Notes: generated from the sequence alone by a model not told the origin. A stretch of 32,000 nucleotides of DNA from Hahella chejuensis KCTC 2396 (GCF_000012985.1 NC_007645.1:3896581-3928580), one strand, 5' to 3'. Positions 1,631 to 26,461 are shown, numbered from the stretch's first letter. Numbers and translations are program-made.

Positions 1631-1744
1631 GCCGCCTCAAAAGAAAAAGTAAATCTGTGGCGGTTGACCGACGCGCTGATTTTTTGATAATTGATTATTA
1701 TCGTAATTATAAATAATCTATCTATTACCATTTTCGTCATTATA

Positions 1745-2209: not shown

Positions 2210-2509
2210 GCCTTATGCTTTTATTTAAAATTCCGCCAATTTTCGTTTTGGAAAATCAGTCTGATAATCCATGAAAAAATCACAGATAGGAGAGCATACT
2301 TAAAAAAGCGCCTATTTTTAATCTCAATAATTAACGATAAACTTCTACAGCCACTCCCACCCACGCAGGAAATAACGCTGCCTTCTGATGTCACTTCAAT
2401 ATAAAATATGAGGTATACAGCTGAGCCAATTTAGTCTTTGGTCTAAACAGCAGTACAGGCCATTTTGCGATTACCTGACCCGATCCTACCTATCGATGGT
2501 AGAACCGAT

Positions 2510-2767
2510 TTAGTTCTTTGGAGTTTGTTTTGGATAGATGGACGGCGTAATTCTTCGCCCTTGATACAGCGTGCTATCCTGCAAAAACTCCCTTGCTAAT
2601 TGCCCTGCTGCGACTTGATTATCCCTTACCCTGGCAATTTCCTGCTCATTTAGCTTCACGCTGATATCATATATCCCGCCCCCTCCCGAAAGAAAAGTCA
2701 GATACCAATTTTCTTCGTCTTGCATCAGCATATAAAAATATGCCTCTTGAAAAATAAGCTTCAACAA
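2510..2767 (-). CDS. Small hypothetical protein (85 aa), immunity-position ORF downstream of 2761..3246; paralog of 1364..1630
   Basis: It overlaps the 3' end of the upstream ORF by 7 nt, which suggests coupling. TTG start with GAGG upstream. Paralogy as described for 1364..1630. Confidence 0.6.
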   Translation of the reverse strand: MLKLIFQEAYFYMLMQDEENWYLTFLSGGGGIYDISVKLNEQEIARVRDNQVAAGQLAREFLQDSTLYQGRRITPSIYPKQTPKN

Positions 2768-4432: not shown

Positions 4433-4436
4433 ATAT

Positions 4437-5108: not shown

Positions 5109-6082
5109 GCTAGTACTTCTTCCATTATTGGCTGACTTCTACAGTAGTAATAAAGCGCTTCCAGGCGGCGGCTCAAGGAGCCAAAGTTTCTATTCTCAAG
5201 ATAATCAGAGCGAATCCAGGACAAGGACTTGTTATCCATAAAATCCCAACCATAAAGCACGCAGATATTGAGAAAGAAGAAGGCATCTTGGCGAATAGTG
5301 GCGCCGATACTTTGGGCCTGCTTGATTGCAGCCTCAAAACGCACAAAAAGCTCATTGTCATTCAAAGGCTGTAGCTTTTTCGTATAACGCCTCTTGAACA
5401 GTTTTACCATTCGCCGAACATATGCGTCCGCACTAACTTTGGCCAAAAGATCCCGTTGATCTGGTCTAATTTTCATTCCCAGACCACTAGATTCGGGATG
5501 TTTGCTAAGGTCAGTTATGTATAAATCGACCTCTGCTCCTGTGTCATTACTAGTACGCACTTCAAGCTCAATACCCCTGCGCCGATACCGACGAGAAAAC
5601 GAAGGCTCGTCACCCTCCATCCAGAAAGCGCCAATATCTCCCATAATTTTGTTTATCTGCGTCAAATCGCAGCTTGGCAGTAGTGCACCGAGAAAGCGTG
5701 GATCACAATACCTAAAGTACCAGTTCTCATTATTGGGACCGCGAACTTTAGCAATTCGCCGAAAATGTCGCACCAGATCAGGCATGGGCTTATTGCTTGC
5801 TAAAAAAATCCCCCAACTTTTTCCCCACGTTTCTTCAAACAACCAGTTGCTGAAGCTGCCTTCCTTCAGCTCGACTATATGAGGAGATGCAGCTTTTAAT
5901 TCCTCACCAACCTTTGGCCAAAAAAGAGTAGAACTATCGCAGGAGCTCTGGGTAATCGCAGGATATAGTCCATCATTACTGGCACAATCAATCAGCGCAT
6001 AATAATGTCGATAACCAGGACAACACCCTTTGAAGGTTTTTAGTGTCGGCTTTTCGTATAAACTCGCATCATTAGTGGGCAT
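5105..6082 (-). CDS. DUF4123-domain protein (T6SS effector adaptor/chaperone, Tap/TEC family) with a C-terminal extension
   Basis: DUF4123-like pattern: YYALIDCASNDGLY ... LFW....EL..ASPHIVEL....F..WL.E..WG.SWGIFL.S......LVRHFRR...V...N...WYFRYCDPRFLGALLP. It is translationally coupled to the downstream toxin-like ORF. Confidence 0.75.
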   Translation of the reverse strand: MPTNDASLYEKPTLKTFKGCCPGYRHYYALIDCASNDGLYPAITQSSCDSSTLFWPKVGEELKAASPHIVELKEGSFSNWLFEETWGKSWGIFLASNKPMPDLVRHFRRIAKVRGPNNENWYFRYCDPRFLGALLPSCDLTQINKIMGDIGAFWMEGDEPSFSRRYRRRGIELEVRTSNDTGAEVDLYITDLSKHPESSGLGMKIRPDQRDLLAKVSADAYVRRMVKLFKRRYTKKLQPLNDNELFVRFEAAIKQAQSIGATIRQDAFFFLNICVLYGWDFMDNKSLSWIRSDYLENRNFGSLSRRLEALYYYCRSQPIMEEVLA

Positions 6083-6150: not shown

Positions 6151-6420
6151 TTAGCTTTCTAACTCCAAATCAAATGCAATATTCTGACACTTCTTTAAAA
6201 TTTGCGACAACTCTGGATCAGACTCTTCAAACTCTCTAACAGCAAAATGCCCAAGAATTATCTTATCTAGCTTACTTTCATCTTTTTCCTTTCCATCAAC
6301 TATCGCAAGCAAATAATTAAGTTGCCTAGCTATACTATGGTAAATTTCAAAATCCGGCGTTAGCTTAAGCCTTTCTTCATTTATTGCTATAGCTTCGCAT
6401 AGTGTTTCTTTTTTATTCAT
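6151..6420 (-). CDS. Small helical hypothetical protein (89 aa), second immunity-position ORF of orphan cassette O1
   Basis: Intact ATG ORF with AT-rich codon usage. The motif LGHFAVREFEESDPELSQILKK is reminiscent of small helical T6SS immunity proteins. This is an unverified recollection of the Tsi6 family. Confidence 0.5.
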   Translation of the reverse strand: MNKKETLCEAIAINEERLKLTPDFEIYHSIARQLNYLLAIVDGKEKDESKLDKIILGHFAVREFEESDPELSQILKKCQNIAFDLELES

Positions 6421-6527: not shown

Positions 6528-6926
6528 TCAGTAATTATCTGTCACAAGCTTTTTATCTACATATCTGATCCTGTTCTGCGGCCCATGGCCTGCATATTCG
6601 GTATAGGTTAAAAATACCGCCTTACAAATCATGCAAACATTTATATATGACTCATGGTAAGGGTAAAAATGAATGGCTATTGGAGCATCCTTGCTCCAAT
6701 AATTTGTACCGTCTACGTGATACTCGGTATAACCATTCTTTTTTATTGACTCTTCTGCGCCTTCAAACTCTGCTATAGGTTTGATATTTTTACTAGTATC
6801 TGGAGTGATATTTGACCATCCCCTTAAGTCTTGCTTTCTACAGAATTCACAGGCATCAGTATTTTCTTCCTCTATTAGTTTTAGAAGTGACTCAAAATCC
6901 ATTTTAACCAGCTTTTCTTGACTCAT
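6528..6926 (-). CDS. Hypothetical Cys-pair protein (~132 aa), cognate-position immunity ORF of orphan cassette O1
   Basis: The ATG at 6926 is preceded by AGGTG. An alternative GTG at 6935 abuts the O1 stop codon. It contains CEFC and CMIC pairs, which could form a zinc ribbon. Confidence 0.6.
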   Translation of the reverse strand: MSQEKLVKMDFESLLKLIEEENTDACEFCRKQDLRGWSNITPDTSKNIKPIAEFEGAEESIKKNGYTEYHVDGTNYWSKDAPIAIHFYPYHESYINVCMICKAVFLTYTEYAGHGPQNRIRYVDKKLVTDNY

Positions 6927-6935
6927 TATTTGCAC

Positions 6936-7823
6936 CTACTTATCTTTAATTATCCTTGCATTTTCAAATGCCTTTTCATATCCATCTAAACTCTTTCCAT
7001 GATCAACTTTCTCTGCACCAATAAGAGCAGCCTCTGTAGTTCCTGATTTAGTTTTCCCTCCTGGGACCCATTCACCAGGAATAGCACCAAATTCATTCCC
7101 TGTAGGCATTTCATAAGAAAATCTAGAGTCTCCTGGCTTTATTTGCACATACATTATTCTATCTTTCTCCAGTCCTTTTAAATCCATATCGCTTAGTCCG
7201 AGATTTAGCTCATCATTTAAAACATTTAAGTCACCAGTTGATTCAAATTTCTGAATAACCTGATCCATTTCTGACTTTAATCCTACAAACTTTCTTGGAG
7301 GGAGTGTCGAATGTCGGCTACCAATAGTCCAGCTTTCAACCACTATAAAAGCGCCGCCTTCAGAGGCAAATTTTTGCTTATAACTATCTATATAGGATTG
7401 AGGTAGGTAAGAAGCTGGATCATCAGGCTTACTACCTCTAGGCATACCTTCAACTTCCTTCATCTTCTGATAACTTTTTGCCGCCTCAGTACTGTTCGCA
7501 AAGTGTCCCTTAGTGTCTTTTTGGAACTGGTTCCAAGAGTTTTCCTTACAAGTCAACCCATACGGATCGACCCACCCCGTGGGATTCGGCGCATATTGAT
7601 AGTTGTTGTCTCCCCCCAACAGCCCAACTGGGTCCTGGTTGATGAACCGTGCGGCGCTGGGGTCATAATAACGGCGCCGGTTGTAATGCAGGCCGGTTTC
7701 TTCGTCGTAGTATTGGCCCTGGAAGCGCAGTGGGTTCTGTACGTCTTCGACGTCTTGCAGCGCCAGATTGCCGTAGGCTTTGTAGCGGGCGGACCAGACG
7801 ACTTCGCCTTCCGCGTTGGTCAT
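6936..7823 (-). CDS. Orphan Rhs cassette O1: core-end fragment plus unique C-terminal toxin domain (295 aa from an internal ATG)
   Basis: The sequence MTNAEGEVVWSARYKAYGNLAL...RFINQDPVGLLGGDNNYQYAPNPTGWVDPYGL is near-identical to the end of the main Rhs, followed by a unique ~210 aa tail. Two codons upstream of the ATG a TAG replaces the CAG of the main gene (P*EM vs PQEM). Homology decays further upstream, to about 7935. Confidence 0.8.
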   Translation of the reverse strand: MTNAEGEVVWSARYKAYGNLALQDVEDVQNPLRFQGQYYDEETGLHYNRRRYYDPSAARFINQDPVGLLGGDNNYQYAPNPTGWVDPYGLTCKENSWNQFQKDTKGHFANSTEAAKSYQKMKEVEGMPRGSKPDDPASYLPQSYIDSYKQKFASEGGAFIVVESWTIGSRHSTLPPRKFVGLKSEMDQVIQKFESTGDLNVLNDELNLGLSDMDLKGLEKDRIMYVQIKPGDSRFSYEMPTGNEFGAIPGEWVPGGKTKSGTTEAALIGAEKVDHGKSLDGYEKAFENARIIKDK

Positions 7824-7935
7824 TTCCTATGGCTTGTCCTGGTGGTAGTAATAGACCTGTGTATTCTGGATGAACGCCAACCGATGGAAGGAGCTTGTTC
7901 TTATAGACGTAGAGTTTGTTCAGAAATAGCTAGAG
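7554..7935 (-). repeat. Rhs core-end repeat, copy O1 (5' part eroded)
   Basis: Aligns by eye with 16323..16700 of the main rhs. It is near-identical over 7554-7823 and progressively mutated over 7824-7935. Confidence 0.85.
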
Positions 7936-8052
7936 GGGCTCTGAAGAGAGAGTAGTCATTCACGCCAATCTGTACCTTCCCCCTCCTAGGGCTCAAAACA
8001 TAAAGTCTCCCACCTTTAAATCATAAACTTCAACTCACTAGCCATCAAAAGT

Positions 8053-8505
8053 TTAATCAGCACTCATTCCCTTCAGGTGCTCCCTCAGCTTTAGTAAGTG
8101 CTTGCGATAATTTTCAACCACATACACTTCATCTCTATCAAGTTTATTTGTATAAAAGTCCCTCAAATCTACTTCGCATGCATCGATCAATTCTTGATCC
8201 ATTCCTTTGTTTCGGTAATTCTCTATTTTATCTTCAGAAAACGGAAAAAATTTTATATATTCAGACCTTTTTTCGAGAATATCACTCAACGCTAATTCTG
8301 AAAAATTTTTCAGACATTCTTCTAACGCACTTATATATGCATCAGTCACAAATAAACACAGATCTATATTTTCCGAATAATATTTAACATACTCCTCACA
8401 CCCTTTCTCATCTTCATCAAAGTCATATATATACGGGGGAAGATATGAAAGCCTAGAATCCCTTATCTTAACAATCATTTTTTTCACAATATTTTTCAAA
8501 AACAT
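8053..8505 (-). CDS. Hypothetical protein (150 aa), second immunity-position ORF of cassette O2
   Basis: Intact ATG ORF, very AT-rich, same strand as the cassette. I recognise no motif. Confidence 0.5.
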   Translation of the reverse strand: MFLKNIVKKMIVKIRDSRLSYLPPYIYDFDEDEKGCEEYVKYYSENIDLCLFVTDAYISALEECLKNFSELALSDILEKRSEYIKFFPFSEDKIENYRNKGMDQELIDACEVDLRDFYTNKLDRDEVYVVENYRKHLLKLREHLKGMSAD

Positions 8506-8663
8506 AATTTTCCGGAAGAATTTTTTCCAAAATCAACTTATCAGAGACAGGCGAAGTAGTTTTATCCCTCACTTGATCATTTTTACTAAGTAACCAAATA
8601 AAAAACTCCCAATAAAACAGGCTACTTAATAACTGCCATCTAAAGTTACCAAGGGTAAAAAAA

Positions 8664-9503
8664 CTAGCCGCCCATGATCATACGGTTAAGCTCACAGATA
8701 GCACCTTCAACACTAGAGGCTATCTGAAATTTATTCACCGCCCCCCTGAGTGCTTCCTTATTTTCATCTGCGAAAACAAATTTTATTGGACTATCAGGCT
8801 CTATAAACCCCGAAGGATAAAGGCTAATATCATCTCCCCACACATAATCCAGCAATGTCAAATCTACAACGACCATATCCGGTTCAAGTAGAGTACAAAC
8901 CTCTCTAAGGGCCCACTTTATTTTTAATGCATCCTCCTCTCCACCAGAACCATGTCGATACTTTCCGACAATTTTAATGCACACTCCTCTTATTTCCTCC
9001 CCCCAGGACGAGGCCTCATAACTTATATCCGAAATATCAAACGAAACACTCTTAGAATTATTCACTATGTAATCATGCGAAGCACAGTCCACATATATAT
9101 TTTTGAAATATTTTTCAAAAGAAACAGGCAAGTCCTTTACTGCAGCCTCAATAGAATCAGAAACAATTACATTATCGATATTTCCAACCTCTTTACCTGT
9201 AACAATATAGCAGTTTCTTCTCCTCCTTATAAAGCGAGAAAACACATAATCAAATACAATTTCATTGACTTGACTTACTTTACTAACATCAAAAATCATC
9301 ACCTTGCTCTTCATAAGCTCAAAAACCATACATGAAAGCAAGTACAGCATCTTATCAATTATAACTGAGTCATATTTGTCAAAGCGAACTTCTGATATAT
9401 TAACAATTGCCACATCAGCAGTTGATCGAGGCAATTTAAGACACACTATTTCCAGCTCAAAAAAATCTGAAAAGGGTGGAATTGTAATTTTTTTCAGCTT
9501 CAT
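8664..9503 (-). CDS. Hypothetical protein (279 aa), cognate-position immunity ORF of cassette O2
   Basis: ATG start 3 nt after the stop of the O2 toxin reading frame. AT-rich, with no recognisable motif. Confidence 0.6.
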   Translation of the reverse strand: MKLKKITIPPFSDFFELEIVCLKLPRSTADVAIVNISEVRFDKYDSVIIDKMLYLLSCMVFELMKSKVMIFDVSKVSQVNEIVFDYVFSRFIRRRRNCYIVTGKEVGNIDNVIVSDSIEAAVKDLPVSFEKYFKNIYVDCASHDYIVNNSKSVSFDISDISYEASSWGEEIRGVCIKIVGKYRHGSGGEEDALKIKWALREVCTLLEPDMVVVDLTLLDYVWGDDISLYPSGFIEPDSPIKFVFADENKEALRGAVNKFQIASSVEGAICELNRMIMGG

Positions 9504-9506
9504 CTA

Positions 9507-10515
9507 TTATGATTTCCTCGTAATGACATAGTCGCTTTCTTTTTCTCTTTCAATAACTGACTTATTTAGCAATACCGCATCTGCTTTTCGACCGAGTTGA
9601 TTGCTAGTTGTCTCGCTAAATTCGTCTAAAACCTCTTGCAAAACTGGATCTAACTCTTCCATTTTGTCTGGTTTTAAACGTCCATCATCTGTAAAGTATC
9701 TTGCATATCGTCTTTGTAATTTGTCACTGGTAAAAAAGAAGTCTACGTCACTTGCTTTTAGCTCACCACGATCAACCCGATATGCGCCGCCTTTTGAAGA
9801 TACCCCCGTTAACTGCGCTCCCTCTGATTCCAATTTCCACATCATCAATCCCGAGTAAAGCAAGTTTATTTTTAAGATACCCTGATCTTTCCATAAGTTC
9901 GCCAGCATTCCTAAATCCACGAACTTTTTTCCCAGAGACAATGGTTTTTGATTCCCGATACGCTCTTCGCCTTCTTTGCCTATCACAATCTTTAGCCTGA
10001 AGTCCAAACGGATCGACCCACCCCGTGGGGTTCGGCGCATATTGATAGTTGTTGTCTCCCCCCAACAGTCCGACAGGGTCCTGATTGATGAACCGTGCGG
10101 CGCGGGGGTCATAATAACGGCGCCGGTTGTAATGCAGGCCGGTTTCTTCGTCGTAGTATTGGCCCTGGAAGCGCAGTGGGTTTTGTACGTCTTCGACGTC
10201 TTTAAGCGCCAGGTTTCCGTAGGCTTTGTAGCGGGCGGACCAGACGACTTCGCCTTCCGCGTTGGTCATTTCCTGCGGCGTGCCCAGGTGATCCAGATGG
10301 TAGTGGTAGACCTGTTTGTCCTGGATGAACGCCAGCGGGCGGAAGCTGTTGGGTTCGTAGACGTAGACTTTGTTGAGGTGGTTGCGCTGTTCCGAGAGCA
10401 ATACGTCGCCGTTCCACAGGAACTCGGTCTTGCCGAAGGCGTCCTGTTTGGCGATGCGGCGTCCCAGGGCGTCGTAGTCGTAGCAGGATTCCGACGCGCC
10501 CAGGCTCTCTCGCAG
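9507..10515 (-). pseudogene. Orphan Rhs cassette O2: core-end plus nucleotidyltransferase-like toxin, split by a frameshift in a G5/C5 run
   Basis: Track ORFs 9772..10401 and 9507..10112 are two halves of one gene. Removing one C from the C5 run at 9803-9807 joins ..DPFGLQAKDC...IGIRGSAVNG to VSSKGGAYRVDRGELKASDVDFFFTSDKL... This gives a G-S ... D-x-D pattern like Pol-beta-type nucleotidyltransferases, though the spacing is longer than the classic motif. The frame is open upstream to the TAG at 10516-10518. Confidence 0.7.
10000..10515 (-). repeat. Rhs core-end repeat, copy O2
   Basis: Encodes ESCYDYDALGRRIAKQDAFGKTEFLWNGDVLLSEQRNHLNKVYVYEPNSFRPLAFIQDKQVYHYHLDHLGTPQEM...WVDPFGL, almost identical to the main rhs at 16323..16800. 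Confidence 0.9.
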
Positions 10516-10670
10516 CTATCGACCCACTTTGAGGGGTTGCTAGACGCTCAAGTGGAACTGTAACGGGATTGACATAGAGCCTCTGCTTTAATACCGCCTC
10601 TTTCTTTTTTAAAAAGGAAGTGCTAGATAAGACTGAAATATTCACTCTTTTTATACGAAAGATATTTTTT

Positions 10671-12164
10671 CTACATTTCATCAAGCATATTTAGCGCATC
10701 GCAAACTTCTTCCCTTATAACTCTATTGTTAATATTTTTCGCCGCAATCAACCCTTCTTTTGCTATCCTTCCTGCCGGTCTGTCAAGCGTTGCTATCCAG
10801 TGCAGGCAGTCAATACATTTTATATTTATATTAAAATTAAAGTCTCCATTTAATTCATATGGAATATAATTCAAAAGAGAAGTTGTCGCCTGCACCAATA
10901 ATTCGTCATTTATTGGCTCCTCGACAAGATCGGAAATCAGATCAACAACCGCTTCAGGATGAAACTCCTCTTTATAATTATCCAAAATATCGCAGAAATA
11001 TTTCATGTAAATTTGTTTTGGATTCTCTCTGCAAAAATAAAAGAGTCTAGCAACTAGCCCCCAATTCCTGTCGTGAATGGCACTATCAATAAGAGAAGAA
11101 ATTACTTCCTGTGGAGGTGAAGAGATGTCTCTTAGATCATCGAAAGAGCAGCTGGCAATCTGATTCTTAAATTCGAGTTTGTTCATGTTTTTTTTCTTGG
11201 AGTCTATTTTTGTCATTTTAATCGGTTTAAATAATTCCTTTGTTTCTGGGCTCAGGCCATAATTCAAGCTCCCTCTCTCGCTTTTCAGGTGAATATATTT
11301 TTCTTTTTCAGATAATGCATTAGTAAATTCCGGCAAACTGGAAAATTTGCTTAACTCAGGTTGGTTGGGAGCACGAGCGCCATGTTCTTCCAACAGACTT
11401 CTCGTGCCAGCTGGCACTTCCAATTTAATAAGATGGTCGTATTTTTTCTGTGTTTTGGGTTTACTTTTATACATCAGATATAAAGGATAGCTTTTATCTT
11501 GGGTAACAAAGTAGTCTACGCCTCGGGGAACAATATTATTTTCTTTCTGCATTCTTTCCCACTCTTTATCACAAACAGCTCTATAAAAAATTTCGACATC
11601 TGCACACTGCCCTCCGGGCAGACTACTCTCTGCCGTAGGTTGCACTGCTTCAGCCTTAGGACAATCCCCAGGTTTGGCAGTCAACCCATACGGATCGACC
11701 CATCCCGTGGGGTTAAGCGCATATTGATAGTTGTTGTCTCCCCCCAACAGTCCGACAGGGTCCTGGTTGATGAACCGTGCGGCGCTGGGGTCATAATAAC
11801 GGCGCCGGTTGTAATGCAGGCCGGTTTCTTCGTCGTAGTATTGGCCCTGGAAGCGCAGTGGGTTCTGCACGTCTTCGACGTCTTTAAGCGCCAGGTTGCC
11901 GTAAGCTTTGTAGCGGGCGGACCAGACGACTTCGCCTTCCGCGTTGGTCATTTCCTGCGGCGTGCCTAGGTGGTCCAGATGGAAGTGATAGACCTGTTTG
12001 TCCTGGATGAACGCCAGCGGGCGGAAGCTGCTGGGTTCGTAGACGTAGACTTTGTTGAGGTGGTTGCGCTGTTCCGAGAGCAGCACGTCGCCGTTCCACA
12101 GGAACTCGGTCTTGCCGATGCGGCGCCCTAAAGCGCCGTATTGTAAATAAGCCGCTTGATCCAG
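10671..12164 (-). CDS. Orphan Rhs cassette O3: core-end plus unique toxin domain fused in frame to an immunity-like domain
   Basis: The frame is open from the TAA at 12165-12167 to 10671. The core-end ..WVDPYGL is followed by a ~165 aa unique domain (EIFYRAVCDKEWERM...), then ..KIDSKKKN-MNKLEFKNQ... continues into a ~160 aa helical domain with no stop codon. The junction sits on a T8/A8 run at 11188-11195. Relative to the other copies, 18 nt of the core-end are missing near 12110 (..GRRI-GKTEFLW..). Confidence 0.75.
   Translation of the reverse strand: MDQAAYLQYGALGRRIGKTEFLWNGDVLLSEQRNHLNKVYVYEPSSFRPLAFIQDKQVYHFHLDHLGTPQEMTNAEGEVVWSARYKAYGNLALKDVEDVQNPLRFQGQYYDEETGLHYNRRRYYDPSAARFINQDPVGLLGGDNNYQYALNPTGWVDPYGLTAKPGDCPKAEAVQPTAESSLPGGQCADVEIFYRAVCDKEWERMQKENNIVPRGVDYFVTQDKSYPLYLMYKSKPKTQKKYDHLIKLEVPAGTRSLLEEHGARAPNQPELSKFSSLPEFTNALSEKEKYIHLKSERGSLNYGLSPETKELFKPIKMTKIDSKKKNMNKLEFKNQIASCSFDDLRDISSPPQEVISSLIDSAIHDRNWGLVARLFYFCRENPKQIYMKYFCDILDNYKEEFHPEAVVDLISDLVEEPINDELLVQATTSLLNYIPYELNGDFNFNINIKCIDCLHWIATLDRPAGRIAKEGLIAAKNINNRVIREEVCDALNMLDEM
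11683..12164 (-). repeat. Rhs core-end repeat, copy O3
   Basis: Near-identical to 16323..16790 apart from scattered SNPs and an 18-nt internal deletion. Confidence 0.9.
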
Positions 12165-12196
12165 TTATTCGCTACTTCAGCGTCAAGCTCCTAAAC

Positions 12197-12509
12197 CTGC
12201 GGGTCGATGATATCAACCGCGTTACAACCTAGTCAGATCTCGTTTGTGTAGCGTTCATTGTGTGTGTTTTCTAGTGCTATAACGTAGGTAAGGCGTGTAC
12301 TCAAAAGTCTGCGCCTTATAGCCACATTGTGGGCGTGTGGAAAGCCCAAGAGGCTTACTCATCACAGTGATCACGACAGGGTAAAGTACACTGAGCGTTT
12401 GGATGAGGCAGGAATTAGGACCTCTCCTTCTGGTAGCGTAGAAGACTTCTACGACAACGCCTTGCCAGAAATAGTCAACGACTTGTACAAGACAGAAGTC
12501 ATCTACTAA
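12197..12509 (+). pseudogene. IS3-family transposase (OrfB integrase core) remnant
   Basis: Fragments lie in two frames with stops. LRVDDINRVTT*SDLVCVAFIVCVF* resembles W.aDiTYv.T..G..YvAfviDvF. ..LTHHSDHDRVKYTERLDEAGIRTSPSGSVEDFYDNALPEIVNDLYKTEVIY resembles HSDrG.QY.s..YterL.eaGi..S.GsvGdsYDNAlaE..ng.yK.Evi. I saw no inverted repeats. Confidence 0.7.
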
Positions 12510-12593
12510 AACACCACCTGAAAAGGGCTGGATAAACTTCGATCAGCCCTTCTCACTTATGTGAGTGGTTCAACATTTGTCAAAATATTGACA

Positions 12594-12914
12594 TCAATAT
12601 ATATCCTTCCTCTCAATATTTTCTATATCAATCTTCAATAACTCTAAAAAATCAGGCCCATACTGCTCTCCATTAACATGCAATTCTATCTCAACCCCAC
12701 TTTCTTTAAGTTCATTTACCATCTCATAAACCAATCTCAAACCACAGTAAAACTCTGAGGCTTTCAGCCGGACATTACATATAGAGATTTTTCTTTTTAT
12801 TGTTTCCGCGACAGATGAAACAGGGACATCAATATATTTTATAATTATTTTTATGGTTGAAGCCAGATCGTCTTCACTAACGACAAAAACCTCAACATTC
12901 AAATCTTTTTTCAT
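12594..12914 (-). CDS. Hypothetical protein (106 aa), second immunity-position ORF of cassette O4
   Basis: Intact ATG ORF, AT-rich, same strand. No motif recognised. Confidence 0.5.
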   Translation of the reverse strand: MKKDLNVEVFVVSEDDLASTIKIIIKYIDVPVSSVAETIKRKISICNVRLKASEFYCGLRLVYEMVNELKESGVEIELHVNGEQYGPDFLELLKIDIENIERKDIY

Positions 12915-13017
12915 TTAGCTATATGTCCTGCTTTTGCAACCACACCATCTTTTTTCTTCGTATCACAAATTTCCCTGTATAGTTACCTACAATACCTCAG
13001 AAGCACTTTGATTAAAC

Positions 13018-13500
13018 TCAATCTTCATGAGCATCATGGTGCTTATTGTATGCATTAATCACCACACGAACCCAATCATCTATATTGATATCATCCTGAG
13101 TTTCAACTGAACGCAAATATGAGAACATTTGAGAGGATGACGTCATAGCCCAAATTGAAAAAAGACAAGCTTCGTAATCGCCCTCTGTCAAAGAAGGATA
13201 TTCATCTAATATTAGTGACTTAACCTTATCGTTACACCATATACTTTCTAGTATATCTGAAACAAACACATTCCCATTTAAAGCAGCCAGTCCTTGGCGC
13301 ACCACTTCTCCATCTTTCTCTGAGCTTGACCAGTGAAGCTTACTAACCAAGTCGAAGTTAGTTTCTGATGTAGAGCCATGAAGCAAAAGACCCGCTCTTA
13401 TTCTATCTGTTGCTGCCGGCAGCTCCTCTTTATCGATCAGTTTTGTCGAGAGTTCATATAAAATTTTAAGAAGAATTTGTTTCCCGCTACCCTTTCTCAT
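13018..13500 (-). CDS. Hypothetical protein (160 aa), cognate-position immunity ORF of cassette O4; paralog of 1745..2209
   Basis: Its ATG overlaps the toxin stop in a 4-nt ATGA (13497-13500). Full-length similarity to 1745..2209. Confidence 0.7.
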   Translation of the reverse strand: MRKGSGKQILLKILYELSTKLIDKEELPAATDRIRAGLLLHGSTSETNFDLVSKLHWSSSEKDGEVVRQGLAALNGNVFVSDILESIWCNDKVKSLILDEYPSLTEGDYEACLFSIWAMTSSSQMFSYLRSVETQDDINIDDWVRVVINAYNKHHDAHED

Positions 13501-13890
13501 TCTACAGTTACCTTTTTAACTTTTTCATTAAACTCATCCAATAAGTTTATGCCAATACCGAATGCTCCCGGTTCATTATCTTTCGTAAATACTCCGTCAG
13601 GAAAGCCGGCTTCTCCCACATCCATATCCCAATAGTCTTCGGATAGGCTTTCGAGCCACTGAATGGTACCTGGCTCTACAAACATAGTTACTGTTTTCTC
13701 ATGTCCTTTCTTGCTTAAGCTTTCTTGCTTATTCTTGACAGATACCCATTTTGCGCCTCTGCTGCCATGTTTTGGAACTAAACCTTTAGCTTCCATCATC
13801 TGAGCTGCTTCATCCTGATTTGTGCGCCTTACAATAGTCTCATACGAGTCTTTATCTTTCTTTTTCTTCTTCGGGCAATCTTTCGACTTA
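13497..13890 (-). pseudogene. 3' part of the cassette O4 toxin domain, separated from its Rhs core-end by the IS insertion
   Basis: The frame is open from the IS boundary: SKDCPKKKKKDKDSYETIVRRTNQDEAAQMMEAKGLVPKHGSRGAKWVSV...KVTVE*. It lies in the same frame as ..DPLGLMAK at 14856-14880 once the IS and one TTA copy are removed. Confidence 0.8.
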
Positions 13891-14856
13891 GTAACTATCT
13901 CATAACCTCATTGACGCCCCTGTAGCCGCCACATCCGCCGAAACCATAACAGACCACATGCCAATTGCAGCAATCCCAGATAGTTGCTGTCCTTTTTGTC
14001 ATAGCGAATCAGTAACGCACGGCACTTAGACAGCCAACCAAACGTGCGCTCCACTACCCAACGCCGGGGCTTTCCACTTGGATGACGGTCCGCTGGCTGC
14101 GCCTCCTCGCCAATTCGGCAGATATGCGGTATGTAGTCATGCCGGGCTGCCACGTCTTCGCTCGCCACATTGTCATACCCCTTATCCAGGCATAAATGCT
14201 GCCGCGCCTCCACCGTTGGAGCCGGACGCTCTACCACAATCGACTCCAGCGTCGCTTCCAGCAGCTTATGGTCGTTGACATTGGCTCCGGCGATGACGAG
14301 TCCCAAGGGGCCTCCCTCGGCTTCCACCAGCAGGCTTTTCTTGGTTCCCTTCTTGCCTCGGTCTGTCGGGTTCGGCCCCACATTCTCCCCCCCCAAAGCG
14401 GGCTTTCCCCAGCCAGCCGTCCGCACTTTGCCATTCCCAGTCCACCCCTTCCAGTTCCTGGCAGTCTCGCAATAGACTCGCCCAGATCTTCTCCATCACG
14501 CCGTTTTTACTCCAGCGCTGAAACCAGCGATGGACCGTGGCGTCATCCCCAAATCGGCGGGGCAACTGGTTCCACTGACAGCCTGAACGCATCCGAAAAA
14601 TAATCCCGTTCAAATAGCCCCTCCAGTTGCCGATGGGGCGGCCACCCTTGGCGCTGGGTTGCCAGTCTTCTTTTAAAATGGGTTCGATTCGTAGCCATAG
14701 CTCGTCCGGTACTTCCCATAGAGTGTCCAGGGGTTTCGATTTACTGGACGGGGCGCTTGAGTCCTTTTGTGACATGACGTTTCCTTATCAGAGAAGTGGC
14801 GCCTCAGTGAACCGGCAAAGGTTAAAAAATTCAAGTGGGGGTTATGAGATAGTTAC
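13891..14856 (-). mobile_element. IS5-family insertion sequence (IS1031/IS427-like), 966 bp, with 17-bp terminal inverted repeats and a 3-bp TTA target duplication
   Basis: The left end GTAACTATCTCATAACC (13891-13907) is the exact reverse complement of GGTTATGAGATAGTTAC (14840-14856). TTA flanks both ends (13888-13890 and 14857-14859). The element carries a two-frame DDE transposase. Confidence 0.9.
13908..14775 (-). CDS. IS5-family DDE transposase in two overlapping frames (orfA 14266..14775, orfB 13908..14426)
   Basis: orfA contains ..CQWNQLPRRFGDDATVHRWFQRW... orfB contains ..GPNPTDRGKKGTK...LDKGYD...WVVERTFGWLSKCRALLIRYDKK. The frames meet at a C8/G8 run (14387-14394). One G fewer would give a continuous ..GKARFGGENVGPNPTDRGK.. 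protein. Confidence 0.85.
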
Positions 14857-15374
14857 TTAGCCATTAGACCCAAAGGATCCACCCACTCTATGGGATTCAG
14901 CACATATTCGTAGTTGCTCTCACCTCCCAGTAACCCTGCAGGGTCCTGGTTGATGAACCGTGCGGCGCTGGGGTCATAATAACGGTGCCGGTTGTAATGC
15001 AGGCCGGTTTCTTCGTCGTAGTATTGGCCCTGGAAGCGCAGTGGGTTCTGTACGTCTTCGACGTCTTTCAGCGCCAGGTTGCCGTAGGCTTTGTAGCGGG
15101 CGGACCAGACGACTTCGCCTTCCGCGTTTGTCATTTCCTGCGGCGTGCCCAGGTGATCCAGATGGTAGTGGTAGACCTGTTTGTCCTGGATGAACGCCAG
15201 CGGACGGAAACTGTTGGGTTCGTAGACGTAGACTTTGTTGAGGTGGTTGCGCTGTTCCGAGAGCAGCACGTCGCCGTTCCAGAGGATCTCGGTCTTGCCG
15301 AAGGCGTCCTGTTTGGCGATGCGGCGTCCCAGGGCGTCATAGTCGTAGCAGGATTCCGACGCGCCCAGGCTCTC
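14853..15374 (-). pseudogene. Orphan Rhs cassette O4, 5' part: core-end truncated by the IS insertion (the stop codon is supplied by the IS terminus)
   Basis: ..ESCYDYDALGRRIAKQDAFGKTEILWNGDVLLSEQRNHL...GGESNYEYVLNPIEWVDPLGLMAK*. The TAA at 14853-14855 lies inside the IS inverted repeat. The frame is closed upstream by the TGA at 15375-15377. Confidence 0.85.
14865..15374 (-). repeat. Rhs core-end repeat, copy O4
   Basis: Near-identical to 16323..16800, except that the last ~60 nt before DPLGL have diverged. Confidence 0.9.
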
Positions 15375-15469
15375 TCACAGCTATCAACTCACTTTGAAGG
15401 ACAACTAGACGCACACATTGATCTGTTACTTAAATGACCCAGAGCTTCCCCCTCCCTGCCCTATTAGAG

Positions 15470-15793
15470 TTAAATCTTCTTAATAAGAGAGTTAATTTCT
15501 TTTTTTAAACTTTCAAGAAGTTTCTTTTTCTCTTCACCATCTACATTCAATGAACATATTTCATACACTATACTTCTTGCTTTAGAGTATACATGACTGG
15601 GAGTAATAGGTTTTTTAAAATTTTTAAAAACCTCTCGCTCCTCTTCAGTAAGGCTAATTTGGACGCTTGTCGGCATCATCACGAGATTGTTTTCTTTAAT
15701 ATCTATCTGATGCGCAAAGAATGTGATGCGAGCACGACCAACTTCTGTGTAAAGAGCTCCACCATGTTCTTGGAAAATGCACAACTGTTTCAT
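15470..15793 (-). CDS. Hypothetical protein (107 aa), cognate-position immunity protein of the main Rhs toxin
   Basis: ATG start 10 nt after the rhs stop codon, same strand, AT-rich. No motif recognised. Confidence 0.65.
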   Translation of the reverse strand: MKQLCIFQEHGGALYTEVGRARITFFAHQIDIKENNLVMMPTSVQISLTEEEREVFKNFKKPITPSHVYSKARSIVYEICSLNVDGEEKKKLLESLKKEINSLIKKI

Positions 15794-15803
15794 ATAGTTT
15801 TGT

Positions 15804-18800
15804 CTAACCTTTTTTATATGGTTCTACTTTATGCTTTTGTATATTGGTGACTTTAGGATTTTTATTTAAAGCGGGCTCTTCGTACTCTTTCCATATAGCG
15901 CCTTCATAAGCCTGAACTACATTTACATCTCCTGAAGCACGCTCAGCATAATCCTCTGATATCGCGGACCATAACCGCCTTCCGTCTGTTGGCTTTCCTG
16001 ATCCCCAGTCTTCGTAGATGAAGAACTCGTCCAGATATTTCCAATTATTAAATATATTTCCTCCAGGAGTCATCTCCAGAGTGGTCGCCCCTGGAATACT
16101 TTCTCTCAAATTTAACGCAAACTCTTCTGCTTTAGGGTAATTTCCTGACCAGAATACTGCGCCATTATTTGGGCTACTTAAATCGAGAAGCTCAGCCATT
16201 TTATCAAAGTCTCTGGCTTGAAAAAGCTTCCATGCAGCAGATGCCTCCGTAGAATTTTTAAACTGCCCTTTGGAACGCTGCTGGAACTCGTTCCACCTAT
16301 TTGGTTTGGACTCCTTACAAGTTAACCCAAACGGATCCACCCACCCCGTGGGATTCGGCGCATATTGATAGTTGTTGTCTCCCCCCAACAGTCCAACGGG
16401 GTCCTGGTTGATAAATCGTGCGGCGCTGGGGTCATAATAACGGTGCCGGTTGTAATGCAGGCCGGTTTCTTCGTCGTAGTATTGCCCCTGGAAGCGCAGT
16501 GGGTTCTGTACGTCTTCGACGTCTTGCAGCGCCAGATTGCCGTAGGCTTTGTAGCGGGCGGACCAGACGACTTCGCCTTCCGCATTGGTCATTTCCTGCG
16601 GCGTGCCCAGGTGGTCCAGATGGTAGTGGTAGACCTGTTTGTCCTGAATGAACGCCAGCGGACGGAAGCTGTTGGGTTCGTAGACGTAGACTTTGTTGAG
16701 GTGGTTGCGCTGTTCCGAGAGCAATACGTCGCCGTTCCACAGGAACTCGGTCTTGCCGAAGGCGTCCTGTTTGGCGATGCGGCGTCCCAGGGCGTCGTAT
16801 TGGTATTCGGTCTTTTGCCCGTCTTTTTCGATGGCGATCAGCTGGTTCTGCTTGTTGTACTGGTAACGGGTCTCCAGCTTGCCGCCTTTGCCGCGTTTTT
16901 CACGAATCAGGTTGCCGGCGGCGTCGTATTCGAAGTGGCGGTCGCCATGGAAATTCAGGCGGTTGCCCTTGGCCTGATTCTGACCATCGAGAATATTGCC
17001 CGCCGGGTCGAAGGCGAATTCTTCGTTGCAATAGCCTTCGACGGTTTTCAGGCGATCCAGGGCGTCGTAACGGTAATGAGTGGTCCCTTTTCTCAGGTCG
17101 TCGATGAGCGCCAGATTGCCGCTGGCGTCATAACCGTAGCTGCGCTCGATGATGCGCGCTTTGCTCTGACGATGACTGACCCGATGACGGATCAGGCGTC
17201 CCATGACGTCGTAGTCGTAGCGGGATTCCGCCGCGCCTTGGCGGCGACGTAATTCGCGTCCGTCCTCATCCCGTTCGATGCTGGCCAATACGTCGCCATT
17301 GAAACTGGCCTGGGTGAACAGGCCATGGCGGTCATAGCCGAAGCCGAGGACGCCGCCATCCGGCAACAGGGATTGGATGCGGGCGCCCAGTGGATTGTAT
17401 TCATGACGCAGTCGCTGCCCGTCCTGGATTTCCTCCGCCAGACGTCCTGTCGGCGTATAGGCGAATTCCAGGGTGCGGTAAGGGTTGCTGGCCTGCGTCA
17501 ATTGACCGTTGGCGTTGTAGGCGAAGCGGCTGATGTCGCCGTCCGGGCTGTGCTTTTCACGCAGGCGCCCCATGGGGTCGCGCTTGAACAGCGTGGTGTG
17601 TTGCGCGCGAATGCGTTCGTCGTCATGTACGCCTTCAATATGCGCTTTCAGATGGCCCGCCGGGTCATACTGATATTGCTGCACCCGGCCGTCGAAGCCG
17701 ATTTCCTGAATCAGACGCTCATTGCGGTCATAGGCCAGTTCATAGCGCTCGCCCTTTTCGTTGATCAGGCCGATCAGGTTGCGTTCTTTATCGTACAGAT
17801 ACTCAAATGTGTGGCCGGCCGGGTCGATGCGTTTGCGCACCTGGGCCAGGCCGTCATACACGTATTCGGTGCAGCGGCCGGCGGCGTCGATAAAGTGCGT
17901 CAGCTGGTCGTTGGCGTTGTAACGCATTTTCAGGACGGAGCCGTCCGGGCGTTTGACTTCGGTGACGTTGCCGTTGCGGTCGTACTGATAGGCCGTGGTT
18001 TGTCCCTGATGATCGGTGGCGGCGCGGACCTGTCCCTGCGCGTTGTAGGCGTAACGGGTGGTGTGCTGGTTGTCCGTTTCGCTGACCAGTTGGCCTTCCC
18101 GGTTCCACTGCAGCTCCCGGGCCTGTCCCAGGGCGTCGATGATCTTTTGCGGCAGCCCCTGGGCGTTGTATTCGTACTGGGTCTGCGCGCCTTCTGGATC
18201 AGTGATGCGGGCCAGCAGGCCCTGTTCGTTGTACTCGCGACGCCAGACATGGCCGAGGGCGTTGGTGATCGCCACCGGCATGCCGTCGTCGTTGTAGTCG
18301 ATTTTGTAATGGCCGCCGTTGGCGTCGATCAGGGCGGTTAACTGGCCGTTGTCATTGTAGGCGTAGTGGGTGCTGTGGCCGTTGGGATCGGTCTGCTCCA
18401 CCAGATTACCGGCGTTGTCGTACGCGCGTCGGGTGATTCCGCCTTCCGGATCGATTTCTTTAACGATCTGGCCGCGATCGTCATAGTGGAAAGTGGTTCT
18501 GCCGCCGTTGCTGTCGATGGCGTGGGAGGTCTTGTTGGCCGGGTCCCATTCGAAGCGGTAGTCATAGACGCCCTGGTCGCCCCACTGACGCACACAGCGG
18601 GCGGCTTTGTCGTAGCGGCTCCACTCGAAATAAAAGCTGAAGCCGGTCTTCAGGGTGCGGCGGGTGATGACGTGGTTGCGATAGGCGTAGGATTCACCCG
18701 CGCCGGCCGGGTCCCGCACCTGCGCCAGATCCTGGGCGTCGTCGTATTCGTACCTGACCAGGGTGTCCACATCGCCGTCCGCGCGCAGCGACTGGATCTC

Positions 18801-20042
18801 GCAGATCAGTCCCTGGGCGTTATGCAGCACGTACAGACGTTTGCCCCAGCTGGTCTGAATAAGAGTGACCGGTCGCTCGTAGCCGTCCAGGTCCTGCCAG
18901 TATTGAATGCGCACGCCATTGCCGACGCCATCCAGCAATCCTTCCAGACGGTAGACGCCGCCGGCGCCCACAAACAGGCGGATGGGCTCGCCGCGTTGTT
19001 TAAGTACGTAATGGGTGTCGTCAATCCGGCGCAGTTCCAGATGTTCAGCGGCGTTGCGGACGGTCTGGCCGGGTTCCGCCAAAGGAAAATCAATATAGCG
19101 GCCTTCGTCCGTGGTGAAGACCAAACGTCCTTCCTGCTCCTCCAGCTGCTGACACAGCATGTGGGTCCAGCCCACGCCCAGACCGCGTTGATGGGGATTG
19201 GAGGATTTGTAGGTGCGCTTCCAGATAATCGGCAGAGGGCCGGCGACGGTGAAATCGGTCAGATCCAGCAATTCCTCGCCGGTGACCATGCTGATAGGTT
19301 CGCCGCTGGTGCAGACCTTTTTGTTATCCGGCGTGGTCGCGCCATTGTCATTGCCGCCGGATTTTTCGCTGACGCTGCTGTCGCTCGAGGGTGACGCGGA
19401 GCCAGCTCCGCCGGATTTTTCGCACTCCTCGCAGAAAGGTAACTCATCTTTGGCGGTGTTCTTAAGAGCCTGTGCTTGCGCCTGCTCATCCACCGCGCTT
19501 TCCGGCGCTGCGGGAGCCGCCTGGGCGGGAGGAGCGGAATAGGTCTTGGGTGGAGCCTGATGACTGGTGGACTCTCTGGGTTTGCTTTCCCAACCTGGGT
19601 TGCCATTTAGCGCAGTGACATCCATGACTTCGCCGGTAATCGCCGGCGGTGGTGGTGGTGCGGGGTTGGCGCGATTAATCAGACGCACGGCCAAAGTCAG
19701 TTCAGACACATTGGGCTTGAGGCCGTCTTCGCTCTCGCTCACAACAGAGCAAAACGGCTTTTTCTTGTCGGTAAAGACCAACAGGATTTCGCCTCGTTCG
19801 AGCCCTTTAACAAAGTCTTCTTTCCACTTACGCAGATGCCGTGAACCTCGGCCGGGAAACCCGCCAAACGATGAGCGAAAGTGACTCCCCTTTAAGTGAT
19901 TAACGACATCGCCGACTTTGGCGTCTATGTTCAGACAACGCTCGGCATAGCTGGAAGCGAAAAAGGGGGATTCTACAAACGGCAGGTCCGCAACGGTGAT
20001 GTCAGACCAATGCTTAAATACATAACTGCGAGTGGAATACAT
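15804..20042 (-). CDS. Full-length Rhs/YD-repeat polymorphic toxin (~1412 aa from the ATG at 20042) with an ADP-ribosyl cyclase/CD38-like C-terminal toxin domain
   Basis: Rhs N-terminal plug motif CTSGEPISMVTGEELLDLTDF..IWKRTYKS. Dozens of YD repeats (..YDxxGxL..) follow. The core-end motif is ..YYDPSAARFINQDPVGLLGG..PTGWVDPFGL, and a ~170 aa AT-rich tail comes after it. The ATG at 20042 has AAGGA ~12 nt upstream. The track start at 20075 is a TTG. Confidence 0.9.
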   Translation of the reverse strand: MYSTRSYVFKHWSDITVADLPFVESPFFASSYAERCLNIDAKVGDVVNHLKGSHFRSSFGGFPGRGSRHLRKWKEDFVKGLERGEILLVFTDKKKPFCSVVSESEDGLKPNVSELTLAVRLINRANPAPPPPPAITGEVMDVTALNGNPGWESKPRESTSHQAPPKTYSAPPAQAAPAAPESAVDEQAQAQALKNTAKDELPFCEECEKSGGAGSASPSSDSSVSEKSGGNDNGATTPDNKKVCTSGEPISMVTGEELLDLTDFTVAGPLPIIWKRTYKSSNPHQRGLGVGWTHMLCQQLEEQEGRLVFTTDEGRYIDFPLAEPGQTVRNAAEHLELRRIDDTHYVLKQRGEPIRLFVGAGGVYRLEGLLDGVGNGVRIQYWQDLDGYERPVTLIQTSWGKRLYVLHNAQGLICEIQSLRADGDVDTLVRYEYDDAQDLAQVRDPAGAGESYAYRNHVITRRTLKTGFSFYFEWSRYDKAARCVRQWGDQGVYDYRFEWDPANKTSHAIDSNGGRTTFHYDDRGQIVKEIDPEGGITRRAYDNAGNLVEQTDPNGHSTHYAYNDNGQLTALIDANGGHYKIDYNDDGMPVAITNALGHVWRREYNEQGLLARITDPEGAQTQYEYNAQGLPQKIIDALGQARELQWNREGQLVSETDNQHTTRYAYNAQGQVRAATDHQGQTTAYQYDRNGNVTEVKRPDGSVLKMRYNANDQLTHFIDAAGRCTEYVYDGLAQVRKRIDPAGHTFEYLYDKERNLIGLINEKGERYELAYDRNERLIQEIGFDGRVQQYQYDPAGHLKAHIEGVHDDERIRAQHTTLFKRDPMGRLREKHSPDGDISRFAYNANGQLTQASNPYRTLEFAYTPTGRLAEEIQDGQRLRHEYNPLGARIQSLLPDGGVLGFGYDRHGLFTQASFNGDVLASIERDEDGRELRRRQGAAESRYDYDVMGRLIRHRVSHRQSKARIIERSYGYDASGNLALIDDLRKGTTHYRYDALDRLKTVEGYCNEEFAFDPAGNILDGQNQAKGNRLNFHGDRHFEYDAAGNLIREKRGKGGKLETRYQYNKQNQLIAIEKDGQKTEYQYDALGRRIAKQDAFGKTEFLWNGDVLLSEQRNHLNKVYVYEPNSFRPLAFIQDKQVYHYHLDHLGTPQEMTNAEGEVVWSARYKAYGNLALQDVEDVQNPLRFQGQYYDEETGLHYNRHRYYDPSAARFINQDPVGLLGGDNNYQYAPNPTGWVDPFGLTCKESKPNRWNEFQQRSKGQFKNSTEASAAWKLFQARDFDKMAELLDLSSPNNGAVFWSGNYPKAEEFALNLRESIPGATTLEMTPGGNIFNNWKYLDEFFIYEDWGSGKPTDGRRLWSAISEDYAERASGDVNVVQAYEGAIWKEYEEPALNKNPKVTNIQKHKVEPYKKG
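16323..16800 (-). repeat. Rhs core-end repeat, master copy inside the main rhs
   Basis: This segment (..YDALGRRIAKQDAFGKTEFLWNGDVLLSEQRNH... to ..WVDPFGL) recurs at four downstream loci. Confidence 0.9.
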
Positions 20043-20308
20043 TCGGAGTACGTCCTTTGTAAAGCGACACAGCAAGCCAAACGGGCCATGGCGTCATGAA
20101 AACGGTTACTGGTAACTGGGGGCGATCAGCGAATACCTTAAAACTAACAACGACACATACCGCCCACTTGCCTTACGACACGTCGCGCCAATCTCCATGA
20201 GCTTGATTTACGCGCATACGTAGCCAGTTAAGCGTTAATACTGGGAATTTTCCTTCATTATTCAGGTGGTTATTTCGTGATGTAAGCAACGTTTTTGTGA
20301 TGATGGCG

Positions 20309-26452: not shown

Positions 26453-26461
26453 CGCCGCCGC

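Follow-up and report, generated by a model that had tools for sequence, protein, structure and literature searches.

Orphan Rhs toxin modules of Hahella chejuensis, probably displaced from a main gene, combine mostly damaged toxins with intact immunity-position genes

Introduction

C-terminal displacement of Rhs toxins has been described by Jackson 2009 (PMC2935791), Poole 2011 (PMC3150448) and Koskiniemi 2014 (PMC3967940). Here we report on a 32,000-nucleotide (nt) stretch of Hahella chejuensis KCTC 2396 (NC_007645.1:3896581-3928580; "the window" throughout, with positions counted from its first letter), in which one full-length rhs gene is followed by four 5'-truncated rhs-CT (C-terminal)/immunity modules, the orphans O4, O3, O2 and O1, all of the relevant genes lying on the minus strand. 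Among the closest described systems, the clade II rhs locus of Serratia marcescens Db11 consists of SMA1610 and the fragments SMA1612/1614/1616, with direct repeats, a GC trough and no start sites; two of the fragments are frameshifted or prematurely stopped, and among strains of E. coli the same tip is displaced in some and attached in others (Jackson 2009, PMC2935791). The Hahella locus shares with Db11 a full-length rhs with direct repeats of partial core plus tip, a high-GC core joined to low-GC, dissimilar tips, and tips common to several genomes; it differs in its host, a member of the Oceanospirillales, in having four orphans instead of three, and in lesions that include an insertion sequence (IS) and a toxin-immunity fusion and that can be traced against intact orthologues.

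In Salmonella Typhimurium LT2, recombination between main and orphan rhs has been shown experimentally (Koskiniemi 2014, PMC3967940), and as in Hahella the orphan lacks initiation and export signals, has its own immunity gene and shares core homology with the main gene (Koskiniemi 2014; Poole 2011, PMC3150448). The orphan toxin of LT2 is intact, however, whereas three of the four in Hahella are damaged, and the Hahella case is known from its sequence alone. Long arrays of displaced fragments and immunity genes, in which orphan immunity is kept after toxin loss, are a further point of likeness to Snodgrassella alvi, where some rhs genes of the Rhs arrays are pseudogenes and immunity genes have been orphaned (Steele et al. 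2017, PMC5727410), and to Vibrio cholerae, where immunity-gene arrays stem from sequential effector displacement (Kirchberger et al. 2017, PMC5361080), although in S. alvi many of the orphans are transcribed and their toxins active, and the V. cholerae arrays are not Rhs.

Two other systems bear on delivery and on the toxins themselves. RhsP2 of Pseudomonas aeruginosa is a PAAR-less Rhs protein with a DUF4123 adaptor, Tap14 (Colautti et al. 2024, PMC11582642; PDB 7RT7). It resembles the Hahella system in the absence of PAAR, in the DUF4123 gene next to the array and in its ADP-ribosyltransferase (ART)-fold toxin, which the model of the O3 toxin matches; in contrast, the Hahella DUF4123 gene lies downstream beside its own effector candidate of 223 amino acids (aa), with no VgrG nearby. 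The ADP-ribosyl-cyclase toxin family depletes NAD(P)+ (Colautti et al. 2025, PMC12356396), and the tip of the main Hahella Rhs is like bacterial members of it (Tac1, PMC12356396; CD38-fold, PMC12605009) in matching Rib_hydrolayse and the structure 9ro8; Tac1 is associated with a type VII secretion system, whereas the Hahella domain is an Rhs tip, assigned by profile and PDB match only.

Results

The 3' end of the rhs core (0.39-0.48 kb) is present five times in direct orientation on the minus strand, as recovered with a 300-nt seed family and gapped BLASTN. An earlier reading of the window by eye (the original prediction) had located all five copies, to within about 10-50 nt, and had put their differences at a few SNPs per 60 nt. 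With the main copy (16312-16805) as BLASTN reference, the four orphan copies, which we call handles, are 89-96% identical to it, above the ~85% that the prediction had named as the lower limit for its reading; repeats so long and so similar within 32 kb cannot be due to chance. The differences from the main copy are mostly synonymous (18:3 against nonsynonymous in O2, 20:6 in O3 and 22:11 in O4), which argues that the handles diverged inside working genes, not as neutral duplicates in situ. Homology stops at the W-V-D-P-x-G-L codons, which end at 16323 (main), 14865 (O4), 11682 (O3), 10000 (O2) and 7554 (O1): in a seven-way alignment identity drops from 90-98% to 32-50% within the next 55 columns. 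The abrupt fall in GC content that the prediction had noted past this boundary is found at the main, O1, O2 and O3 tips, where GC is 0.32-0.40 as against 0.56-0.60 in the handles, and fails only at O4, where a GC-rich IS stands behind DPLGL. Apart from a similarity of ~35 aa between the main and O1 linkers the tips are mutually unrelated, and behind each lies a small open reading frame (ORF). Upstream of every one of the four handles there are stop codons in the Rhs frame, and no continuous ORF leads in.

Three of the four displaced toxin tips are broken, and an intact immunity-position ORF stands beside each of the four. We propose that the locus is, very probably, an Rhs polymorphic-toxin array built by serial C-terminal displacement. 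Incoming tip/immunity cassettes would recombine with the conserved 3' end of the rhs core, and at each event the earlier tip would be pushed downstream together with a piece of core, its handle, and its immunity gene. Because the displaced modules lack the N-terminal delivery region and their toxins would no longer be under selection, the toxins would decay, through a +1 frameshift in O2, an A7-to-A8 slip in O3, insertion of an IS5-family element in O4 and erosion of the handle in O1. The immunity genes would be kept because related Hahella strains presumably still fire the same toxins from their main rhs genes. The core of the original prediction, a full-length rhs with four 5'-truncated modules that share a handle and combine decaying toxins with persistent immunity, is upheld, and sister genomes agree with it.

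Two annotated proteins (HCH_03779) assign the window to H. chejuensis KCTC 2396. Scanned with the Rhs protein, species-representative genomes gave 25 comparator loci. The syntenic locus in Hahella sp. NBU794 (L003) is 83.4% identical over 10.5 kb in the upstream flank, 91.3% downstream and 93.8% in the core. A further locus (L026, strain CP132203.1), found through a homologue of the O3 immunity gene, has its rhs at a different site, syntenic with a second NBU794 locus (L001). The main gene of the window is colinear with the 1405-aa rhs of CP132203 over 3724 nt without gaps, and is therefore taken to be intact. The status of the tips swaps between the three genomes. Both O2 and O3 are orphans in the window, whereas the O2-type tip is armed in NBU794, joined to the main rhs as one intact ORF of 1375 aa, and the O3-type tip (~96%) is the tip of the intact full-length rhs of CP132203. 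The tip type of the window's main gene is, in CP132203, a frameshifted, degenerate orphan behind the rhs, without the DPxGL end of a handle, the 107-aa immunity gene of which is intact. The original prediction had proposed a comparison with related strains, and two of these do bear the same tips on full-length rhs genes; such a counterpart was found for O2 and O3, and is not shown for O1 and O4. The features of the array and its surroundings are listed in Table 1.

Table 1. Coordinates of the rhs array and adjoining genes in the window, in the order of the array. Identities of handles are to the main copy.
Feature	Position	Strand	Description
Main full-length rhs	15804..20042	-	1412 aa from ATG 20042 (start as in homologue's gene call)
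Main C-terminal toxin	15804-16322	-	predicted ADP-ribosyl-cyclase fold
imm107, candidate immunity gene of main toxin	15470..15793	-	107 aa, directly downstream of toxin
O4 handle	14865..15448	-	handle 14865-15347 (BLASTN 14868-15347, 92.5% over 481 nt) + ~100-nt leader 15348-15448
IS5-family IS in O4	13891..14856	-	966 bp, five codons after DPLGL
O4 toxin domain	13497..13890	-	cut off from handle by IS
imm160, O4 cognate immunity candidate	13018..13500	-	160 aa; start overlaps toxin stop
Further small ORF behind O4	12594..12914	-	106 aa, no family
IS3-family transposase fragment	12327..12509	+	between O4 module and O3 handle
O3 handle	11682..12146	-	BLASTN 11679-12118, 93.9% over 440 nt
O3 toxin	11187..11681	-	putative ART fold, RhsP2-CT-like
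imm171, O3 immunity gene	10671..11186	-	171 aa, intact, own ATG
O2 handle	10000..10583	-	handle 10000-10482 (BLASTN 10004-10482, 95.6% over 479 nt) + O4-like leader 10483-10583
O2 toxin	9507..9999	-	broken by +1 T at 9811-9812
imm279, O2 immunity candidate	8664..9503	-	279 aa, 97.8% aa identity to NBU794 (L003)
Second small O2 ORF	8053..8505	-	150 aa, 97.3% aa identity to NBU794 (L003)
O1 handle	7554..7935	-	3' 285 nt 95% identical (BLASTN 7543-7923, 89.0% over 390 nt, 2 gaps)
O1 toxin	6936-7553	-	ORF open, no family
imm135, O1 immunity gene	6528..6935	-	135 aa
Orphan Tsi6-family immunity gene	6151..6420	-	Pfam Tsi6 1.5e-22; no cognate toxin in window
DUF4123 adaptor gene	5105..6082	-	Pfam DUF4123 1.7e-33
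Effector candidate	4437..5108	-	223 aa, no family match
SUKH immunity gene	3716..4432	-	Pfam SMI1_KNR4 4.8e-7

All four lesions proposed in the original prediction are real, although two had been misdescribed: the frameshift of O2 is not a homopolymer slip, and it is the O3 fusion that stems from one. The frameshift in O2 is confirmed against the intact NBU794 gene (GCAGTTAACGG in the window, GCAGTAACGG in NBU794); the extra T is a single-T insertion in a TT, not in a homopolymer, and it splits the toxin into the ORFs 9772..10401 and 9507..10112. Apart from this indel the tip is 99.8% identical to that of NBU794, and it carries a GS...DVD nucleotidyltransferase-like motif with a weak Pfam match to NTP_transf_2 (E 0.061). 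Farther along the module, a T5 run at 8498-8505, T4 in NBU794 with the difference at 8502, shifts the possible start of the second small ORF, which has 150 aa from an ATG in the window and 172 aa from an upstream GTG in NBU794.

In O3 both of the predicted lesions, the fusion and an 18-nt deletion, are present. The tract at 11188-11195 is A8 against A7 in the intact CP132203 gene, the stop codon is lost, and the toxin runs in frame into the immunity ORF; the toxin ends in ...AAGAAAAAAACATGA (S K K K T *) in CP132203 against AAGAAAAAAAACATGAAC in the window. In CP132203 the toxin stop overlaps the immunity ATG (ACATGA, an ATGA stop/start overlap) and the 171-aa immunity gene is separate. An exhaustive HMMER scan likewise divides the fusion in two, residues 4-164 matching the C-termini of Rhs and other large toxins and residues 169-339 matching only stand-alone proteins of ~170 aa; imm171 is 92% identical to one such stand-alone protein of 171 aa (P0002). 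The deletion, which removes AKQDAF at 12118/12119, preserves the frame, lies where the handle begins on its 5' side and leaves the toxin unharmed. An AlphaFold2 model of this toxin (pLDDT 88) matches the RhsP2 toxin 7RT7 in Foldseek (E 2.4e-8, TM-score 0.62-0.69), and its homologues share near-invariant FYR, VTQ and KxE columns, mapped onto the catalytic residues by eye only. The dN/dS of the O3 toxin against the sister genome is 0.08 (Nei-Gojobori), and the toxin was therefore apparently constrained for most of the divergence and inactivated recently. Speculatively, changes between A7 and A8 at the stop/start junction could reversibly toggle the product between free toxin and a toxin-immunity fusion that neutralises itself.

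The IS insertion in O4 is borne out in full. The frame is open through DPLGL-MAK and then meets a stop codon supplied by the IS, which is bounded by perfect inverted repeats of 17 nt and flanked by a duplicated target of 3 nt (TAA at 14857-14859 and 13888-13890). Its transposase is divided between two frames that overlap (14266..14775 and 13908..14426), with matches to Pfam DUF4096 and DDE_Tnp_1 and to the NCBIfam model transpos_IS5_3 (NF033580, positions 3-103 and 105-258). Removing the IS in silico rejoins O4 as a single ORF through 13497, read as DPLGLMAK-SKDCPKKKKKDKDSYETIVRR...VTVE, and its distant homologues P0037 and P0038 align over 'ETIVRR...GLVP.HGSRGAK', upstream of the annotated ATG. 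A full-length paralogue of imm160 lies at 1745..2209 (62-66% aa identity) and also occurs in NBU794. The IS3-family fragment behind this module is a second IS footprint in the array; its tblastn search against plasmids gave 4149 records annotated 'IS3 family transposase'.

The nonsense codon and eroded handle predicted for O1 are both found, and they lie in the handle, the toxin domain being undamaged. The 5' part of the handle (55 codons) is degraded to ~63% nt identity with the main copy, has lost 9 nt and contains a TAG (7827-7829). Homologues of the O1 toxin and of its 135-aa neighbour occur jointly in a Ketobacter metagenome-assembled genome (MAG; L004) at 37% and 50% aa identity, and this recurrence supports a cognate pair with a full-length toxin. 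In NBU794 the O1 handle and toxin are absent, and a homologue of the O1 immunity gene is present (78% aa identity). A PDB sequence search with the O1, O2 and O4 toxins and with the 223-aa effector candidate returned nothing useful.

The lesion in the O1 handle also bears on whether the orphans could be translated from a conserved internal Met (MTNAEGE...) as stand-alone modules of toxin-antitoxin type that act inside the cell, as reported for the Salmonella orphan Rhs (Starsta 2020, PMC7043789). The O1 ORF 6936..7823 begins at this ATG, right behind the TAG; in the public annotation the O3 protein (P0001, 426 aa) also starts at this Met, and AGGA stands just upstream of the ATG. The spacing between AGGA and ATG is only about 1-2 nt, however; O2 and O4 yield no toxin from the internal Met, the O3 product would be the toxin-immunity fusion, and promoter-like sites are not in excess (32 against 26 +/- 5.6 in shuffled sequence). 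The promoter and terminator scan as a whole did not rise above shuffled expectation and is uninformative on independent expression of the orphans. We consider stand-alone modules highly improbable, and read the orphans as displaced tips.

The relation between the window and NBU794 changes sharply at the O2 tip. Differences are dense up to 10034 and then almost vanish: the tip, the 279-aa ORF and the next ORF of NBU794 are 98-99.8% identical to 10034-7992 of the window, and identity is 99.8% in the O2 tip, 93.9% in its handle and 83% in the flanks. The tip is far more similar than the handle and flanks, and its common ancestor should therefore be much more recent. This pattern indicates a recent horizontal exchange of the O2 tip, with a breakpoint that would lie at most about 20 nt from DPxGL.

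The handles of O2, O4 and the CP132203 orphan (6517-6874 in L026) are preceded by a common leader of ~100 nt, followed in each by a different tip. The leader is a degenerate core sequence, 'VGR*LRESLGASESCYDYD' ('GRELRRRQGAAESRYDYD' in the main gene), and in all three it is joined to the handle across one shared deletion, internal to the core and lying between two YD repeats, which corresponds to main positions 17194 to 16806. This leader and handle also follow the O3 cassette in both genomes, at different chromosomal loci. Since three tips share one handle structure and the O3 cassette keeps its trailing leader and handle in two genomes, the mobile unit might be a cassette with a trailing handle (tip, immunity gene, ~100-nt leader and internally deleted core fragment) that is exchanged by double crossover, an idea we hold to be quite doubtful. 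If it were true, cassettes could be inserted or exchanged among any copies of core or handle, across loci and strains, in an integron-like manner run by homologous recombination.

The persistence of the immunity-position ORFs, also claimed in the original prediction, is confirmed against homologues, with imm107, imm160, imm171, imm279 and imm135 all of full length. Against the sister genomes the dN/dS values (Nei-Gojobori) of imm107, imm171, imm279, imm135 and the Tsi6 gene fall between 0.10 and 0.53, with 0.13 for imm107 (against CP132203), 0.46 for imm171, 0.29 for imm135 and 0.10 for the Tsi6 gene. NBU794 retains homologues of the O1 immunity gene and of the Tsi6 gene (92% aa identity), together with a 49%-identical relative of imm107. 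A Pfam scan of the immunity candidates found no significant family besides Tsi6 and SUKH. Further small candidate immunity genes, all conserved in NBU794, occupy 1364-3246 on the minus strand; two of these (2510..2767 and 1364..1630) are a duplicated pair with 79% aa identity (DNA repeats D3/D4).

The main Rhs protein consists of an N-terminal domain of ~130 aa, a P/A/S-rich linker, DUF6531, YD repeats, the RHS-associated core and the C-terminal toxin. Pfam assigns RHS_repeat (5.6e-88, 11 stretches), DUF6531 and RHS, and NCBIfam assigns YD_repeat_2x (TIGR01643, 8.1e-74) and Rhs_assc_core (TIGR03696, residues 1164-1240); the core ends in DPFGL (16337-16323). Against Pfam Rib_hydrolayse (PF02267, cutoff 25) the tip reaches 31.1 bits when scanned alone and 24.4 bits within the full-length protein, and it matches the PDB entry 9ro8, 'ADP-ribosylcyclase toxin' (E 3.4e-4). 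We predict from these matches that the current main tip is a toxin of ADP-ribosyl-cyclase (ARC) fold that hydrolyses NAD(P)+. A 107-aa homologue of imm107 stands behind the same toxin type in CP132203, and further homologues occur in NBU794 (49% aa identity) and in comparator locus L012. In a related gammaproteobacterial MAG (L006, 9059-18389) a main rhs is accompanied by two orphans, the first of which has an ARC-like tip (30% aa identity to the main tip of the window) and then a 107-aa ORF.

A PAAR search with residues 1-246 of the main Rhs protein gave no match even at E <= 1, and no family was found for the N-terminal domain by Pfam, by PDB or by a homologue search with the N-terminal 155 aa. 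An N-terminal marker of RIX/MIX/FIX type was considered and dropped; RIX is reported only in Vibrionaceae and Moritellaceae. In a further NBU794 locus (L002; 4074-6965 and 9998-17866) the order toxin, immunity, DUF4123, effector, immunity (Imm49) occurs twice, in one case with a 468-aa protein that is not an Rhs but has the N-terminal ~200 aa of the Rhs protein at 60% identity; this points to a common, uncharacterised domain for delivery that goes with DUF4123 modules. Loci for a type VI secretion system (T6SS) have been reported for H. chejuensis (Boyer 2009). These loci, the DUF4123 module downstream of the array and the repeated order in NBU794 are indirect pointers to a probable export by the T6SS with the help of an adaptor, as for the PAAR-less RhsP2, and not by way of a PAAR domain.

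The DUF4123/effector/SUKH module (3716-6082) adjoins the rhs repeats without belonging to them. In its 223-aa ORF a CAEP...PCDTC motif resembles, by eye only, that of deaminases, and the module is absent at the syntenic NBU794 locus, where the first 43 codons of the DUF4123 gene remain. The genes neighbouring rhs encode a GyrB-like ATPase, an iron-containing alcohol dehydrogenase (Fe-ADH) and an RND efflux system. The GyrB-like gene encodes a stand-alone protein of 325 aa that resembles only the N-terminal ATPase part of GyrB (positions 22-295/641), far below family cutoffs, and a 134-aa ORF overlaps it; the two, at 20309-21666 on the minus strand and immediately upstream of rhs, have counterparts in NBU794 (91% and 89% aa identity). 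The island is placed between two RND-type efflux sets (18-1295, plus strand, and 23282-27679, minus strand), with AcrB-family genes at both ends of the window, and this RND-flanked site is conserved in NBU794. No tRNA genes flanking the island were found in the window.

Discussion

Our analysis of the H. chejuensis locus points to a history of serial C-terminal displacement in which toxins decay and immunity persists. Several points weigh against this account, or against a simple form of it. The secretion route is inferred, as the window has no PAAR, VgrG or Eag gene. The dN/dS values are each based on 9-43 substitutions and are supportive, not decisive. The identity of the handles to the main copy is not monotonic along the array (O4 92.5, O3 93.9, O2 95.6 and O1 89.0%), which rules out array position as a measure of age; with the peculiar handle structure common to O2, O4 and the CP132203 orphan, it also makes a history of one crossover per displacement too simple. 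In MAG L006 both orphans have uninterrupted ORFs, so that decay of orphans is common, not obligatory.

Lastly, the single-nucleotide indels of O2 and O3 are known from one assembly of the strain, exact look-ups of three proteins of the window having returned nothing, and sequencing error is possible. If the T at 9811-9812 and the A8 tract were both such errors, the two modules would really be intact; each is a length difference of one nucleotide, and one of them lies in an A7/A8 homopolymer. It would be a remarkable coincidence, however, for two errors to occur within 13 kb and each to hit a displaced toxin gene, and such errors would leave unexplained the IS, the TAG and 9-nt deletion of O1 and the degenerate orphan of CP132203. 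We judge this very unlikely, and even if it were true the architecture and its interpretation as displacement would be unchanged.

The original prediction had called the locus an arsenal. Taken at its word, this would make the orphans a functional reserve of silent toxins, activated by recombination with the main gene, in which the lesions are incidental or act as reversible safety catches, to be released by a slip back in the homopolymer, by excision of the IS or by a crossover downstream of the O1 stop. The handles share with the main copy 218-323 nt in exact tracts of at least 25 nt, and since they are 89-96% identical to it, with exact tracts of 51-137 nt, RecA-dependent swapping or deletion between handles and main gene may be possible; for this there is experimental precedent in Salmonella (Koskiniemi 2014, PMC3967940). 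In O1 the toxin is undamaged and still paired with imm135, the O3 lesion is one A in an A7/A8 tract, clean excision of the IS would restore the O4 ORF, and main genes of sister strains currently use these same tips. A reserve of this kind is nevertheless unlikely. For three of the four toxins recombination would not suffice and another rare event would be required, the extra T of O2 is outside a slippery tract, a displaced toxin of the same type decays in CP132203 as well, and NBU794 has kept the O1 immunity gene without the O1 toxin. Decay combined with retention of immunity argues that selection acts on immunity and not on a store of toxins.

O1 is the one orphan whose recombination with the main gene could by itself produce a functional chimera and hence a working toxin, no further, reverting event being needed, and 'arsenal' is too strong a word; 'immunity archive with toxin relics' describes the array better. 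Nor is a lesion in each orphan the unusual feature that the original prediction took it to be, frameshifted and stopped orphans having already been described in S. marcescens Db11 (Jackson 2009, PMC2935791).

The locus adds no new principle and is a well-documented example of a known process. As such, it shows cleanly how C-terminal displacement looks in nature in bacteria other than the Enterobacteriaceae: three Hahella genomes carry the same tips either armed on full-length rhs genes or displaced and decaying, while the immunity genes remain intact and apparently under purifying selection. For the biology of these strains, this arrangement predicts that KCTC 2396 would resist the Rhs of NBU794 via imm279 and that of CP132203 via imm171, and that CP132203 would in turn resist the Rhs of KCTC 2396 via imm107.

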